A DNA stretch of 64,000 nt from Thermoanaerobaculia bacterium. Lineage in GTDB: Bacteria > Acidobacteriota > Thermoanaerobaculia > Multivoradales > UBA5704. The notes below the pieces were generated by a model. It was not told the DNA's origin, did not search any database, and saw nothing but the letters and a program-made list of their open reading frames with translations. Location of the stretch: the NCBI GenBank assembly GCA_044226625.1, contig JBGAGQ010000005.1:96001-160000 (forward strand). Reading direction: 5' to 3'. Position numbers and translations under genes: made by a program. Of the stretch, positions 35,910-41,853 are shown piece after piece; position 1 is the first letter of the stretch; each line of letters starts with the position of its first letter.

Positions 35910-38225
35910 CTACGCCGCCGGCTCGACCGCCTCGACGTAGCCGCACCCCTCGGTGTTGCAGACCAGTTGGGTGCCGTGGCGCTTGGTGGTCTTTTCCATC
36001 AGGAACTGCGCGCCGCACGAGGGGCAGGGCTTCGCGACCGGCTTGTTCCAGAGGGCGTTCTTGCAGTCGGGGTAGCGGCTGCACGAATAGAAGATCTTGC
36101 CCCGCCGGGAGCGCTTCTCGACCATCTCTCCCTTGCCGCATTCGGCGCAGGGAACGCCGGTCGGTTTCGGCGCAGCCGGGGCCGGGCCGGTTCGGCGGAG
36201 GTTCTTGCACTCGGGGTAGCCCGTGCAGCCGTAGAACGTTCCGAAGCGGCTGCGGCGGAGCGCCATTGGCTTGCCGCACTGCTCGCAGGGCGGAATCTCC
36301 TCGGCCTGCGCCTCGGAGGCTCCTTCCGCGGGAGCTTCCTCTTCCGTACCGGTGTCCACGTTACGCGTGTACTTGCAGGTCGGATAGTTGGTGCACGCGA
36401 TGAAGGCGCCGTAGCGGCCGAAGCGCATCACGAGCGGAGCGCCGTCCTCCGGGCAGAGCTCGCCGGTCGGCACGCCGTCCTTCTTGACGTTCGGCATCGT
36501 CTCGCCCGCGAGCGCCAGGTCGCGGGTGAATTTCTCGTCGAACTCGCCGATCGCCTGCTTCCAGTCCATCGACCCTTCTTCGATCTTGTCCAGCTCCTCT
36601 TCGAGCGAGGCCGTGTACCCCTCGTTGATCACGTCGTTGAAGCTCCCCTGGAGCATTTTGTTGACGATCTTGCCGAGGGGAGTCGGGCGGAATCGCGATT
36701 CGAGCTTTTCGACGTAGTTGCGATCGGTGATCGTCGAGAGGATCGCGGCGTAGGTCGACGGGCGGCCGATGCCGTTTTCTTCGAGCGCCTTGACCAACGT
36801 CGCCTCGCTGTATTGCGCGGGCGGTTGGGTGAACTTCTGCTCCGAGGCCAGGCGGACGAGCTTCAACGTCTGCCCCTCTTCGAGCGGCGGGAGCATCCCC
36901 TCCGCCGCCTCGGCCTCGTCGCCGTCTTTTCCCTTGCCCCCTTCCGCCTCTTCCGGGGTCTCGCGATAGACCGCGAGGAAGCCGGCGCGCTTCAAGACCT
37001 TTCCCTGCGCGCGGAGCGTGTACTGCCCCTGGTCGCCCGCTGCGATGTCGGCCTGGGTGACGTCGAACACCGCGGGGAGCATCTGGGAGGCGACGAAGCG
37101 ATCCCAGATCAGCTTGTAGAGCTTGAGCTCGTCCGGCTTCAAGAAGTCCTTCACCGCGTCGGGCGAGAGGTCGAAGCTGGTCGGACGGATCGCCTCGTGG
37201 GCGTCCTGGGCGTCTTTCTTGCTCCGATAGCGGTTCGGTTTGTCGGGCAGCGCGCTCGCGCCGTAGGTCGCCTCGATCATCTCGCGGACGCCGACGAGCG
37301 CCTCTTCCGAGACGCGGGTCGAATCGGTTCGCATGTAGGTGATCAGACCCACGGCGCCGCGGTCGCCGATCTCCCGGCCTTCATAGAGCCCCTGGGCGAG
37401 CGCCATCGTGCGCTTGACCGAGAAGCCGTGACGCCGCGCCGCCTCCTGCTGCAGGCGGCTGGTGATGAACGGCGGGCTCGGACGCTGGAGCGATTCCTTG
37501 CGCTCGATCGATCGGACGACGAACTTGCCCTTTTCGAGATCGCCGACGATCCGCGCCGCGTCGTCGCCGTTGCCCACCTCGGCCTTCTCTTTGCCGATCC
37601 GGGAAAGCCGGGCATGGAACTGCGGCGCCTTGCCCGCGTCGAGGTCCGCGCCGAGCAACCAGTATTCGACCGCCTGGAACGCGTCGATCTCGTCTTGCCG
37701 CTCACAGACCATCTTGAGCGCGACCGACTGGACGCGGCCGGCCGAGAGCCCCTGCTTGACCTTCTCCCAGAGCAGCGGCGAGAGGCGGAATCCCATCATC
37801 CGGTCGAGCACGCGACGCGCCTGCTGGGCGTCGACCTTGGCGCCGTCGATCTCGCGCGGCTCGGCGAGCGCCTTGAGCACGGCGTTCTTGGTGATCTCGT
37901 TGAAGGTCACCCTTTTCACCGCGGTGGGATCTTTGTCCAAGACCTCGGCGATATGCCAGGCGATCGCCTCTCCTTCGCGATCGGGGTCGGGCGCGAGATA
38001 GATCATGTCGGCCGTCTTCGCCGCGGCGCGCAGCTTCTTGACCACTTCCTTCTTGTCGGCGAGGACGGCGTACTTCGGCTCGTAGTTCGCGCCGAGGCCC
38101 ATGTCCTTCTTCACCAGGTCGCGGATGTGGCCGAGCGACGCCTCGACGGTGTATTGCCGCCCCAGGAACTTCTTGAGCGTACGCGTCTTGGCGGGGCTTT
38201 CGACGATCACCAGATTCTTAGCCAT
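35910..38225 (-). CDS. topA: DNA topoisomerase I
   Basis: LVIVESPAK, DPDREGEAI, SAGRVQS, ITYMRTDS, GIGRPSTY, C-terminal C4 zinc ribbons. Confidence 0.97.
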   Translation of the reverse strand: MAKNLVIVESPAKTRTLKKFLGRQYTVEASLGHIRDLVKKDMGLGANYEPKYAVLADKKEVVKKLRAAAKTADMIYLAPDPDREGEAIAWHIAEVLDKDPTAVKRVTFNEITKNAVLKALAEPREIDGAKVDAQQARRVLDRMMGFRLSPLLWEKVKQGLSAGRVQSVALKMVCERQDEIDAFQAVEYWLLGADLDAGKAPQFHARLSRIGKEKAEVGNGDDAARIVGDLEKGKFVVRSIERKESLQRPSPPFITSRLQQEAARRHGFSVKRTMALAQGLYEGREIGDRGAVGLITYMRTDSTRVSEEALVGVREMIEATYGASALPDKPNRYRSKKDAQDAHEAIRPTSFDLSPDAVKDFLKPDELKLYKLIWDRFVASQMLPAVFDVTQADIAAGDQGQYTLRAQGKVLKRAGFLAVYRETPEEAEGGKGKDGDEAEAAEGMLPPLEEGQTLKLVRLASEQKFTQPPAQYSEATLVKALEENGIGRPSTYAAILSTITDRNYVEKLESRFRPTPLGKIVNKMLQGSFNDVINEGYTASLEEELDKIEEGSMDWKQAIGEFDEKFTRDLALAGETMPNVKKDGVPTGELCPEDGAPLVMRFGRYGAFIACTNYPTCKYTRNVDTGTEEEAPAEGASEAQAEEIPPCEQCGKPMALRRSRFGTFYGCTGYPECKNLRRTGPAPAAPKPTGVPCAECGKGEMVEKRSRRGKIFYSCSRYPDCKNALWNKPVAKPCPSCGAQFLMEKTTKRHGTQLVCNTEGCGYVEAVEPAA

Positions 38226-38418
38226 GGGCTTCCTCTAACGTCCCGGGCATGTCCACCATTCCAAACCAAACCACATTCCCGACCCAGGAGACGAGCCGGG
38301 GAGGGTACCACCCGCTCCCCGGGGTCGCAACTCGGGTGTCCGGACTCCATGGAAATGTCCCCATGGGGACTCGATAGAAATGTCCCCCTACCCTTTGTCG
38401 ATGCAAGGGGGAGCCGGC

Positions 38419-39714
38419 ATGGGGGAACGGATCGGGATGAGCCGCAAAGAGCGGGATCGGCTGGTGGAGCTGGACGCGGTGCGGCGAGGGCAGAGGAGCC
38501 TGGCCGCCGCCGCTCGGCGTCTGGGATTGAGCTACCGGCAAGCCAAGCGAGTTTGGCGCCGGTTCCAAGAGCAGGAGGCCGCGGGGCTAGTCCATGGCCT
38601 GCGAGGACGAGCGTCGAATCGGCGGAAGGAGCCCGAGATCCGCCAGGCGTGTTTGGATTTCTACGTGGAGCGTTTGGAGGGCTTCGGACCGACGCTGGCG
38701 GCGGAAAAGCTGGGCGAACGAGGTCTAGACGTCGACCACGAGACGCTGCGCCGCTGGCTGGTCGCTTCCGGGCTCTGGTGCTCTCAGCCTCGTGTCCTTC
38801 GGCCGCGTCTGTGGCGACCTCGGCGCGAGAGATTCGGCGAGTTGGTTCAGCTCGACGGTTCGTTCCACGATTGGTTCGGTGCCGGAGAAGGACACCGCGA
38901 TTGTCTGCTGGTCCTGATCGACGACGCGACGGGGCGGCGCCTGAGCCAGTTGGTGGCCGAAGAGACGACTTCCGACGCGATGAGCTTGCTGGCGCGCTGG
39001 ATCGAGCGCTATGGAGTTCCTTGCAGCCTGTACGTCGATCGCAAGAGCGTCTACGTCACCGAGCGGGACGCCACGCTGGAGGAGGAGCTGGCGGGCGAAC
39101 CGCCTCTGACGGTGTTTGGCAAAGCCTGCCGCAAGCTCGGCATCGAGATCGTGGTGGCTCACTCGCCGCAGGCCAAGGGGCGGGTCGAGCGCAGCCACGC
39201 GGTGTACCAGGATCGGTTGGTCAAGGAGATTCGTCTGCGCGGCCTGACGAGCCGCGAGCAGGTCAACGAGTTGCTGGTCTGCTTCGACGAAGACTTGAAT
39301 CGGCGTTTCGCCATTTCTCCAGCCGATCCCGAAACGGCCCACCGTCCGATGCCCGCCGACCTCGACCTGGCGACGGTATGGGTCTGGGAGGAGGTGCGGA
39401 CCGTACGCAACGACTGGACGTTGAGCTACGAGAATCGTTGTTTGCAATTGCTGGGATCGAGCTCCCACCTGCCGAAGGCGAAGAGTCGCGTGACGGTTCA
39501 GAAGCGCCAGGACGGATCGCTCCACGTGCTCTACCGCGGGAAATTTCTCCGTTTCGAAGAGATCCCCCATCGACCGCAGCGTCCGGCCCCAACGCCCTCG
39601 TTGGCTCAGGCCGCGCCTCGGCTTTCCCCTCGCCCCGCGGCCGATCACCCTTGGCGCCAGCGGCTTTTGGCGCCGCGCCGCGGCGCCTGCCCCCCGCCCC
39701 CACCCACTGCCTAG
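38419..39714 (+). CDS. DDE transposase (ISNCY/IS1202-type)
   Basis: N-terminal HTH (AA..LGLSYRQAKR), GELVQLDGS.HDW, YVDR, SPQAKGRVER, C-terminal P..DHPWR. Confidence 0.93.
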   Translation: MGERIGMSRKERDRLVELDAVRRGQRSLAAAARRLGLSYRQAKRVWRRFQEQEAAGLVHGLRGRASNRRKEPEIRQACLDFYVERLEGFGPTLAAEKLGERGLDVDHETLRRWLVASGLWCSQPRVLRPRLWRPRRERFGELVQLDGSFHDWFGAGEGHRDCLLVLIDDATGRRLSQLVAEETTSDAMSLLARWIERYGVPCSLYVDRKSVYVTERDATLEEELAGEPPLTVFGKACRKLGIEIVVAHSPQAKGRVERSHAVYQDRLVKEIRLRGLTSREQVNELLVCFDEDLNRRFAISPADPETAHRPMPADLDLATVWVWEEVRTVRNDWTLSYENRCLQLLGSSSHLPKAKSRVTVQKRQDGSLHVLYRGKFLRFEEIPHRPQRPAPTPSLAQAAPRLSPRPAADHPWRQRLLAPRRGACPPPPPTA

Positions 39715-39725
39715 AGCTTCGGGGA

Positions 39726-39861
39726 CCTATGGAAGCTGCCGCCCTATGGACGGCTCGAGCAAAAAACGCTCGACCCGCCCACAGGGCTTGGACCGCACGG
39801 CCCGATCCGCCGCCCTTCGGGCCGCGGATCCAACGGGCCGGCGGCCCACAGCTCCCACAGG
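39726..39861 (-). ncRNA. Candidate structured RNA or ssDNA element in the IS 3' non-coding region
   Basis: Three-way arrangement of long stems; four A-C mismatches on + become G-U pairs on the minus strand. Confidence 0.5.
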
Positions 39862-39965
39862 CCCGGCGGCGGGAGATAGGGGGACACTTCTATCGAGTTC
39901 CCCATAGGGACATTTCTGTCGAGTCTTGACACTCGGGAGACCGCCGTGCGCTCGCCGTCTCCCGT

Positions 39966-41138
39966 TCAGGCGCGACGATAGAGGCCGCCCGGCAACCGGC
40001 TCGCCCGGCCGAGCAGCTCCAGCTCGAGCAGGGTCGCGAGCACGCGGTCGATCGGCGCGCCGGTCGCCGTGGCCAGATCTTCGGGAGCGCGATCGAAGCC
40101 GCGCACCATGGCCTCGAGGAGCGCGCCGGCGAGGCCCGGGAGGGGCGGCTCGGTGAATTGAGGCTCGGGTTCGCCGGGAGGGGGCGAGGAGGGTCCGCGC
40201 GGCCCGACCAGGTCGAGGAGATCGTTCGGATGCTGGGCGAGGAACGCTCCGTCGCGCAGCAGTGCGTGCGGCCCCAGGGATCGCTCCGAAAAGATAGGGC
40301 CCGGCACGGCGAACAGATCGCGCCCGAGCTCGAGCGCCCAACGCGCGGTGGACAGAGAACCGGAGCGCGCCGCCGCCTGGACCACGAGGACCGCCTGGCT
40401 GAGCGCGGCGATCGATCGGTTCCGGACCGGGAAGTTCCAGGTGCGCGGCTCGTAGCCGAAAGGAAATTCGGTGACCAGGGCACCCCGCGCGGCGATCGCG
40501 CGGCCGAGCTGGCCGTGGCCGGTGGGATAGTCGACCCCCAAGCCGCACCCCAAGACCGCGATCGTCCGGCCGGCCGGCGGCACCAGGGCGCCGCGGTGCG
40601 CCGCGGCGTCGATGCCCCGCGCGAAGCCCGAGACCACGGCGACCTCGCGCTCGGCGAGCGCGGAGGCGAACAGCTGGGCGACCTCCAGTCCATAGGAATC
40701 GGCACGCCGCGATCCGACGATCGCGACCGCGGGTCCCGCGGTCAGCTCTCCGGCGACGGTGAGGACGGGCGGGGCGAGCGGCAGCTGGCCGAGCACGGCC
40801 GGAAATTCCGGGTCGAGGCGGGTGACCAGCCGGCCGCCGAGCGTGGCCGCCTTCTCGCGCTCGGCCCTACCCGTCTCACGTGCCCGAGGTAATAGAGAGA
40901 GTGCGGTTTCGAGCTGGCGCCTGGGGATCCCGATCTCGCGCGCGATGAGCTCGGTCGTGAGCGCCGTCCCGGTCGCGCCGGTCCAAAACTCGAGGTCCTC
41001 CGCCAGGCGGGCGAACGCCGTGCGGGAGAGGCGGGTGTCCGCGTGTAGGCCGATCAGCAGGTCCGAGTCGGGGTGGAGAGCGGGGACCGGGGGGCTAGGT
41101 GGGGGCGGGGTCTCCCGCGCGTGTTTCGTCGCTTTCAT
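39966..41138 (-). CDS. dprA: DNA-processing protein DprA
   Basis: VAIVGSR, VVSGFARGIDAAAH, FP.RNR.IA.LS, SGSLSTA..A...GR, C-terminal winged helix; upstream of topA. Confidence 0.93.
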   Translation of the reverse strand: MKATKHARETPPPPSPPVPALHPDSDLLIGLHADTRLSRTAFARLAEDLEFWTGATGTALTTELIAREIGIPRRQLETALSLLPRARETGRAEREKAATLGGRLVTRLDPEFPAVLGQLPLAPPVLTVAGELTAGPAVAIVGSRRADSYGLEVAQLFASALAEREVAVVSGFARGIDAAAHRGALVPPAGRTIAVLGCGLGVDYPTGHGQLGRAIAARGALVTEFPFGYEPRTWNFPVRNRSIAALSQAVLVVQAAARSGSLSTARWALELGRDLFAVPGPIFSERSLGPHALLRDGAFLAQHPNDLLDLVGPRGPSSPPPGEPEPQFTEPPLPGLAGALLEAMVRGFDRAPEDLATATGAPIDRVLATLLELELLGRASRLPGGLYRRA

Positions 41139-41364
41139 GGCGCATGGCCTCCTCGCCAGAGAACAGACGTAAACGAGGGGGGCGAGTCTCGATGATTCGG
41201 GGACGAACGCCGTCCGGAAGGGTGAAGGCGTTCGTATATACTCCCGGAGCCGTCGCGGACGGCCATCGTCCGAGCGCATCGGAAACGTGAAGGGAAACGT
41301 GAAGACGAAACGCGCGAACCCCAAGACGTACCGCTCGAAATCCCCGGTAACGGAGAACCCGCCG

Positions 41365-41853
41365 ATGTCTCGCGCCCCCCTCCGGATTTTCCTCTCCCTG
41401 ATCGCCCTCCTGATCGTTTCAGTACCGGCTTCCGCGCGCGAAGCGGCGGGCGAGGCGCAGCTCAATTTCGGTGTCAAGATGGCCCAGCAAGGGCTATGGA
41501 ACGAAGCGCTGTTCCGATTCCATCAGGCCGAGCTCGCGGATCCATCGAACCCGCGGATCCGCAACAACCTCGCGGTGGCCTACGAGGCGACCGGCGATTT
41601 CGAGAAGGCGCTCTCCTATTACAAGCAGGCGCTCGAGGCCGCGCCCAACGATCGCACCCTACGCGGCAACTACGCGCGCTTCGTCGAGTTCTACCAGGCC
41701 TTCAAAGGGGGCAAGGCCGCGAAGAGCAGCCCGAAACCGGACGCCGCAAAGGCTTTGAATCCGGCCGAGCCCCTGGTGCCGACCGGCGCGCCGGCCTCTT
41801 CGCCGGCTCCGCCGATCGAGCTGCCGGACAACGCTCCGCCCCCGCCTCGGTGA
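41365..41853 (+). CDS. Exported tetratricopeptide repeat protein
   Basis: Signal peptide; LWNEALFRF..A and NNLAVAYEA.G.FEKA..YY.QAL TPRs. Confidence 0.8.
   Translation: MSRAPLRIFLSLIALLIVSVPASAREAAGEAQLNFGVKMAQQGLWNEALFRFHQAELADPSNPRIRNNLAVAYEATGDFEKALSYYKQALEAAPNDRTLRGNYARFVEFYQAFKGGKAAKSSPKPDAAKALNPAEPLVPTGAPASSPAPPIELPDNAPPPPR

Follow-up and report, generated by a model that had tools for sequence, protein, structure and literature searches.

Insertion sequences (IS) of at least five unrelated families carry, just inside one of their ends, an uncatalogued and strongly conserved three-way junction that is under selection. The module is not specific to the IS1202 family in which it was noticed, and its orientation tracks the IS end, not the gene. 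We tentatively favour a role as a host-tuned single-stranded-DNA (ssDNA) signal for the copy-out replication step, with a cis-acting RNA as a close rival; we infer both the DNA state of the module and its part in replication.

The copy that gave rise to this work lies in the window, by which we mean the whole stretch of 64,000 nucleotides analysed here. Its carrier is a complete insertion sequence with the following features:

38337..39931, plus strand: complete IS1202-family insertion sequence, 1595 bp, TGT...ACA ends (local alignment of the inverted repeats, IRs; ends read off the sequence)
38331..38336, no strand: target-site duplication CTCGGG, left copy, 6 bp (identical hexamer directly outside each end)
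39932..39937, no strand: the 6-bp target-site duplication, right copy (read off the sequence)
38337..38390, plus strand: left IR with two transposase-site units of ~19 nt (alignment score 70; the doubled unit is found family-wide)
39877..39931, plus strand: right IR with two units ~27 nt apart, its tip an outward-facing TTGACA (alignment)
38380..39714, plus strand: transposase open reading frame, 444 aa (NCBIfam ISNCY_2 match)

An earlier note on this DNA, made from the letters alone, had called the carrier an IS1202-type element, and this assignment holds. The transposase scores 345.4 bits against NCBIfam ISNCY_2 (NF033594; cut-off 250, E 4.1e-103), and E270 and Q277 are invariant in a 37-sequence transposase alignment (A1). 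The element is intact, with TGT and ACA tips and IRs of ~55 bp that each hold two copies of the ~19-nt unit. The description of the IS1202 family (PMC10132070) gives Q in place of K/R seven residues past the catalytic E, outer 5′-TGT/ACA-3′ ends and, near either end, the inner repeat once more in an internal position; the double unit in the left IR of the window agrees with this layout of outer and internal sites. The published target duplications are of 3–5, more than 15 or 0 bp, so that the 6-bp repeat in the window, for which a single copy is available to judge, lies one base beyond the 3–5 class. The database form of the transposase has 431 aa (P0001, 100% identical) and would start at the ATG at 38419.

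The element occupies the intergenic space between topA (35910–38225, minus strand, 760.6 bits) and dprA (39966–41477, minus strand, 208.8 bits), each over its cut-off, and is antisense to both. A genome search found no second copy of it in its own genome. On another contig of that genome, 43 nt (G000:C10:76036-76078) are 98% identical to the interior of the transposase gene (query 821–863) and may be a remnant of another IS copy.

The module itself lies between the transposase stop (39714) and the start of the right IR (~39877), and its parts are as follows:

39724..39868, minus strand: structured module, a three-way junction with a 5′ single-stranded CGCCG leader (covariance model R1 and folds)
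39849..39862, minus strand: P1 5′ arm, partner 39725–39738 (parsed from the DNA-parameter fold)
39725..39738, minus strand: P1 3′ arm (parsed from the DNA-parameter fold)
39789..39848, minus strand: hairpin A, 25 pairs, apical C(GAA)G triloop at 39816–39818; the P3 of the earlier note, extended (DNA-parameter fold)
39741..39787, minus strand: hairpin B, 20 pairs, T-run loop; the P2 of the earlier note (DNA-parameter fold)

Read off the sequence again, the pairings first proposed for this region are there: 39726–39738 pairs with 39849–39861 through 11 Watson-Crick and two A-C positions (P1), 39742–39753 with 39775–39786 through ten Watson-Crick and two A-C positions (P2), and the inner tcgagc/gctcga hairpin, the atccgc/gcggat stem and the gccc-ttcg-ggc apex are all present. 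The four odd pairs of P1 and P2 are all A-C on the plus strand, hence G-U on the minus strand. Under RNA folding of 39715–39880, the minus strand reaches −124.0 kcal/mol (z −9.76) and the plus strand −99.3 kcal/mol (z −6.27), with 0 of 200 shuffles as good for either. DNA parameters applied to 39724–39868 give −61.8 (z −9.14) for the three-way junction of the minus strand versus −47.6 (z −5.67) for the plus strand. The region is 71% G+C, which would suit a chance palindrome in GC-rich non-coding DNA. We attach practically no credence to this explanation: besides the shuffles, none of which folds as well, covarying homologues occur in dozens of loci and genomes, and the covariation in alignments of 31 and 47 rows described below refutes it.

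Homologues of the transposase number in the thousands, the best at 65–67% identity, and we took 80 homologous loci from genomes and 80 from metagenomes. In the clade closest to the window, the minus strands of the tails have a common architecture. A seed of eight tails with 86% mean column identity yielded a junction of 41 pairs, 11 of them with compensatory changes. The earlier note had proposed a covariance model built from the 3′ ends of related elements, and such a model recovers the motif, with covariation, well beyond the seed. At E <= 1e-3, R1 matches 32 of 164 related loci and the window, each time on the minus strand and directly after the transposase stop. The window itself is matched over the full length of the model with 34.9 bits (E 5.2e-5 for the 383 kb searched, 8.8e-4 over the whole genome), and the R1 search found no second motif copy in its own genome. 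Hairpin A of the window aligns to hairpin A of the family, plus a lineage-specific extension. Three further R1 matches (L024:1159, L049/L051:22 and L116:715) adjoin second IS copies or lack a clear context.

Among 31 distinct IS1202 copies, 94.3% of the cells are paired and 33 of the 41 pairs have changed on both sides. The covariation score is 0.447, compared to 0.060–0.099 with slid partners, and 0 of 500 shuffles score as high. Across families, an alignment of 47 distinct rows (A5, which includes one reverse-strand row, L096 on the plus strand at 28.3 bits) has 94.9% of its cells paired, compensatory changes in 36 of 41 pairs and a covariation score of 0.520 versus 0.062–0.084 with slid partners. 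The strand signal is equally plain: G-U fills 133 cells of the 31-sequence, IS1202-only alignment and A-C just 5. Alignments of this kind are fitted to the model and hence biased towards it, but the slid-partner controls and the 133:5 ratio far exceed such a bias. In addition, of the 65 distinct tails that measure 60 nt or more, 61 fold better on the minus strand (mononucleotide shuffles, n = 20), and with DNA parameters the motif strand is the more stable in all four copies tested. The idea of a selected, strand-specific structure antisense to the transposase, be it RNA or ssDNA, is thus borne out by the covariation and by the asymmetry of G-U against A-C in dozens of homologues.

What is conserved is a module of ~100–150 nt in which a short single-stranded CG-rich leader lies 5′ of the closing stem P1, followed by two hairpins. 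The conserved parts include the leader, of the CGTCG type, a CCAAG linker between the hairpins, small apical loops and one stem module that recurs in all three helices, each with one G-U. Half-sites of the TGTGGGAA type are repeated across the three stems. Such half-sites could be palindromic operators or cruciforms in duplex DNA, bound by a host protein or by the transposase; the recurrence of one sequence module in all three helices would suit this, as would the binding of repeated subterminal sites by the IS1202 transposase, described in PMC10132070. Protein sites in duplex DNA would yield neither 133 G-U against 5 A-C cells nor compensatory changes that preserve pairing, and the transposases of the carriers are unrelated to one another. 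We therefore consider this reading very unlikely.

Some copies depart from the common form. At L100:2854-2932 a natural internal deletion has removed both hairpins and P1 closes on itself, and the sister copies of this IS at L095 and L101 retain the full junction. Five loci (L204, L209, L214, L217 and L218) have hairpin tips with long G runs, in G-quadruplex-prone loops of 15–19 nt. The copy at L249:537-684 has the hairpin module a second time, nested within it.

The earlier note had supposed that similar motifs may already exist in Rfam, and there we came to the opposite result, as no Rfam family matches. For the window, searched up to E 10, nothing overlaps the motif, and a match to AS1726 elsewhere is at chance level (19.2 bits against 50); for eight motif loci, searched up to E 1, nothing overlaps the motif either. 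At L024:4066-4120 on the minus strand, ~1.1 kb from an IS copy, a match to the Acido-Lenti-1 RNA stays below threshold, with 34.9 bits where the gathering score is 37.

The motif had been tied to the IS1202 type of DDE transposase, of which one half survives: IS1202 elements do carry it, but so do IS3, IS21, IS110 and IS481-like elements. Inverted-repeat pairs enclose the motif in IS3-family carriers. In IS21-family carriers it lies between the istB stop and a TGTCAAC-type terminus, and once upstream of istA. IS110-family elements adjoin it, and an IS481-like element sits beside it. Two sister genomes have a 115-nt variant after the stop of a different, rve-type transposase, in which BLASTP finds no similarity to the transposase of the window (E 1.9).

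The distribution over genomes likewise differs from that of the window's transposase. In the order to which the window belongs, 29 of 61 genomes have the motif (E <= 1e-3) and just 5 of 61 a transposase of the window type (E <= 1e-30). A sample of the phylum gives 22 of 151 genomes (E <= 1e-4), or 21 of 150 without the unpublished genome G111; stricter multi-genome motif filters miss even the copy in the window. The largest accumulation is in a Bryobacterales genome (G061, the genome of locus L053), where a single chromosome has 148 or more near-identical matches to the transposase, from 150 scored of 192 candidates, and 140 or more to the motif, again with 150 scored at most. The motif starts 6 nt past the end of the transposase match in the pairs compared by coordinates. 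This IS1202-family element represents a very large recent expansion.

An IS gene adjoins the motif in 27 of 40 sampled loci (15 of 20 and 12 of 20), and in the other 13 the neighbour is another gene or no IS gene can be assigned. At the phylum level, 8 of 20 loci have no recognisable transposase gene at the motif, and four of these adjoin ordinary or conjugation genes. The neighbours at L248, L250, L259 and L263 are an LpxG-like phosphatase, an FAD oxidoreductase, a VirD4-like protein and a TonB-dependent receptor, and these copies may be solo IS ends or free-standing elements.

Copies of the motif from unrelated IS families reach an identity of 0.90. Eight of 41 labelled copies, that of the window among them, have their nearest labelled neighbour in another family, with, for example, 0.75 as the identity to an IS110 copy and 0.68 inside IS1202. 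Within the IS1202 family, a tree of 102 distinct transposases (after removal of duplicates, of rows in which no right end could be recognised, of matches under 380 residues and of rows with internal stops) has 26 that bear the motif and needs eight changes, at least five of them forced by well-supported branches. The doubled right-end unit, ~27 nt apart, can be placed in 137 of the 158 stop-bearing elements, the window included, and the distance from the stop to this unit ranges from −24 to 449 nt among IS1202 relatives, so the tail is no fixed part of the family. An origin of the motif in the ancestor of the IS1202 family was rejected on these grounds: basal clades are without the motif, at least 5–8 changes are needed and the spacer varies as given. 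We also consider it unlikely that the IS110 copies are insertion targets and not cargo, the motif being inside the repeated unit and the apparently solo copy in G013 belonging to a neighbouring full IS; the lack of inverted repeats in IS110 elements keeps this from being a firm rejection.

Exchange of this kind might mean that the module is a selfish hitch-hiker, a small mobile or recombining unit of its own that rides on IS ends without helping the IS. The identities of up to 0.90 between unrelated IS, the gains and losses demanded by the IS1202 tree and the few copies without an adjacent transposase all speak for it. A passive passenger, on the other hand, needs neither a constant position nor a constant orientation to the IS end, and the module has both in all eight element types where this can be judged; in G061, home of the most proliferative element, motif and transposase have multiplied in step; and we found no terminal features or target duplications belonging to the module itself. 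We regard a mere hitch-hiker as unlikely. It is compatible with a DNA or an RNA state and leaves a function possible.

The placement rule is the same throughout. The motif is always subterminal, just inside one IS end, and its folding strand reads 5′ to 3′ inward from the nearest end in 8 of 8 element types with definable ends, namely IS1202, IS3, IS21, the rve element, the IS481-like element and three IS110 elements. Here the ends were taken from inverted repeats, from the target duplication or from comparing copies with one another. A ninth case, the IS21 element with the motif upstream of istA, fits the inward rule by eye. In most carriers the motif lies downstream of the last gene and antisense to it. 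In four types (the IS481-like, two IS110 and one IS21) it precedes the first gene and is in the sense direction.

In the copy-out model, a 3′-OH in the flank primes replication into the element. The displaced strand at the end of entry then reads 5′ to 3′ inward, which is the motif strand, and this favours an ssDNA signal in replication. It is the reading towards which we lean, with slightly less than even confidence. We propose that, when host replication crosses the element, the motif strand would become single-stranded near the end and snap into the junction, which the host replication machinery would then read. The junction might be a signal for complementary-strand synthesis, in the manner of a single-strand origin, or, if the fork arrives from the far end, a signal to pause or stop; in either variant its role would fall in the replicative part of copy-out, from which the circular transposition intermediate arises. 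For IS2, the right end is reportedly used as the donor; entry would then be at the far end, which favours the pause variant over the priming variant. A host-encoded partner would leave the module swappable between IS families and yet drifting with the host lineage.

The carriers suit such a step. A review preprint describes IS3, IS21, IS110/IS1111 and IS1202 as circle-forming and presumably copy-out-paste-in, and copy-out-paste-in is presented elsewhere as a major bacterial transposition pathway (PMC7780238). Within the IS1202 family, a perfect outward TTGACA ends 95 of 122 distinct right ends (39926–39931 in the window) and a TGATAAT-type box lies ~14 nt inside the tip of many left ends (38337–38360 in the window). 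Abutted ends would thus form a junction promoter, which fits circular intermediates. The way in which replication of the element by the host sets the circle free is, to our knowledge, poorly known. Cut-and-paste IS families were looked at unsystematically, so the link to circle-forming families may be a sampling effect and reflect merely which IS abound in these genomes. The 8 of 20 phylum-level loci without a recognised transposase also argue against an ssDNA signal for copy-out. IS110 elements reportedly recombine through a bridge RNA (PMC11208160), and this, together with the merely 'presumed' copy-out of that family, counts against it as well.

The close rival to the ssDNA signal is a cis-acting RNA, an explanation that we regard as only a little less likely. 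It would fold in transcripts that enter the element from its end, produced by read-through from flanking genes or from a start inside the terminal repeat, and would serve as an element for protein binding, processing, stability or insulation. Its effect would be the control of antisense transcription of the transposase gene in most elements and that of a 5′ leader in the upstream sense layouts. About one tenth of the paired cells are G-U, with four positions conserved; since functional RNAs have conserved G-U more often than DNA hairpins do, this speaks for RNA and against the ssDNA signal. The RNA fold is highly stable, as the minus-strand values above attest, and many IS families encode functional RNAs (bridge RNA, seekRNA, omega RNA). 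In the window, moreover, dprA ends on the minus strand 35 nt outside the right IS end (from 39931 to the first base of its stop codon at 39966), so that read-through from dprA would transcribe exactly the motif strand.

Other observations are less easily reconciled with RNA. One and the same module would have to work antisense in some IS and as a leader in the sense direction in others; strong insulation from the upstream sense position would block expression of the very element that carries it, yet those elements are multi-copy and near-identical; and in the layout of the window the module leaves the start of the transposase gene uncovered and lies at its 3′ end. A scan with an E. coli-type consensus, which is weak evidence, found no sigma-70-type promoter near the motif in 5 of 5 elements, nor did any of the five have a terminator with a U-tract after it, the lone terminator-like match at L096 being part of hairpin B.

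The loops point in the same direction. Among 91 hairpin loops from 46 distinct copies, 40 have 3 nt, and 33 of these 40 are GNA, 30 closed by C-G, with a variable middle base. The RNA-typical GNRA or UNCG sequences occur in 0 of 11 tetraloops. According to published work, d(GNA) loops form very stable DNA mini-hairpins whose stability depends strongly on the closing pair. We therefore counted the GNA triloops and the lack of GNRA and UNCG tetraloops towards DNA. According to one report (PMC5737381), sequence is a poor guide for separating ssDNA motifs from RNA motifs.

A guide RNA, in contrast, is disfavoured. The earlier note had allowed for a targeting role and for loops that follow the target flanks, and neither is supported: motif copies that are 99–100% identical sit at different insertion sites with different flanks, the apical loops are small, and the module is common to unrelated transposases. 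The IS110 bridge RNA, the IS1111 seekRNA and the IS200/605 omega RNA resemble the module as structured, covarying sequences in the non-coding end of an IS. They differ in that each belongs to one recombinase family and has loops matching target and donor, whereas the module accompanies unrelated transposases, has identical copies at different sites, has loops of just 3 nt in 40 of 91 cases and, in two IS110 elements, lies opposite to the transposase strand.

The RNA-OUT of IS10 is made from a promoter of its own and spans the 5′ end with the ribosome site. The module in most carriers is, like RNA-OUT, antisense to the transposase gene. Unlike it, the module lies beyond the stop codon and in some carriers is in the sense direction, and the consensus scan, weak as it is, gave no promoter-like site in the five elements.

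Closer in place is ssr9 of ISPpu9 (IS110 family, Pseudomonas), a transcribed sRNA gene proposed as a selfish-type module (PMC12288879). It too is non-coding and lies downstream of the transposase gene inside the IS, and it is reported also apart from the transposase and as dispensable for ISPpu9 transposition. In these data ssr9 belongs to one IS, whereas the module occurs in five IS families, has an orientation fixed to the IS end and shows no visible promoter or terminator.

REP/REPIN sequences, MITE-type repeats and attC sites are, like the module, dispersed, structure-conserved and strand-specific folds; attC acts as folded single-stranded DNA (PMC5737381). The fold of the module is a three-way junction and not a simple hairpin. 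Most of its classified copies are inside a full IS: 27 of the 40 sampled loci are beside an IS gene and the other 13 beside other genes or unassigned. REP/REPIN or MITE repeats would be expected for the most part as stand-alone intergenic copies with ends of their own.

A further likeness is to single-strand origins and initiation signals: the sso of rolling-circle plasmids, ssi or primosome sites and the minus origins of ssDNA phages. An sso has reportedly been found in ICEBs1 as well. Like the module, sso-type signals are strand- and orientation-specific multi-hairpin folds of ~100–150 nt, non-coding and exchangeable between unrelated replicons. By analogy, the module might also share with them a tuning to the host and a location where the displaced strand first becomes single-stranded. 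The module has a strand bias and an orientation fixed to the IS end, and its orientation to the direction of replication may be fixed as well. In the literature searched we found no description of an sso-type signal in insertion sequences, nor of a structured module common to several IS families; the main text of the IS1202 paper (PMC10132070) has no mention of non-coding, hairpin or stem-loop. With more reserve than the ssDNA signal as such, we put forward that this may be the first dedicated ssDNA replication signal in IS, an sso-like junction exchanged among circle-forming IS of at least five families that would bring the machinery of the host for priming, or that of the fork, onto the displaced strand.

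One conserved, strand-specific structure, positioned alike at one end by unrelated IS families, points to an undescribed requirement that they share. If the module acts as DNA, it would be a cis signal of the copy-out replication step, and a poorly understood step would become directly testable. An RNA role would make it a regulatory module that IS families exchange, and that too would be new. In either case, the junction, in which 36 of 41 pairs covary, is a well-supported addition to the catalogues of RNA and ssDNA motifs, and with its covariance model the ends of IS can be marked in Acidobacteriota metagenome assemblies.
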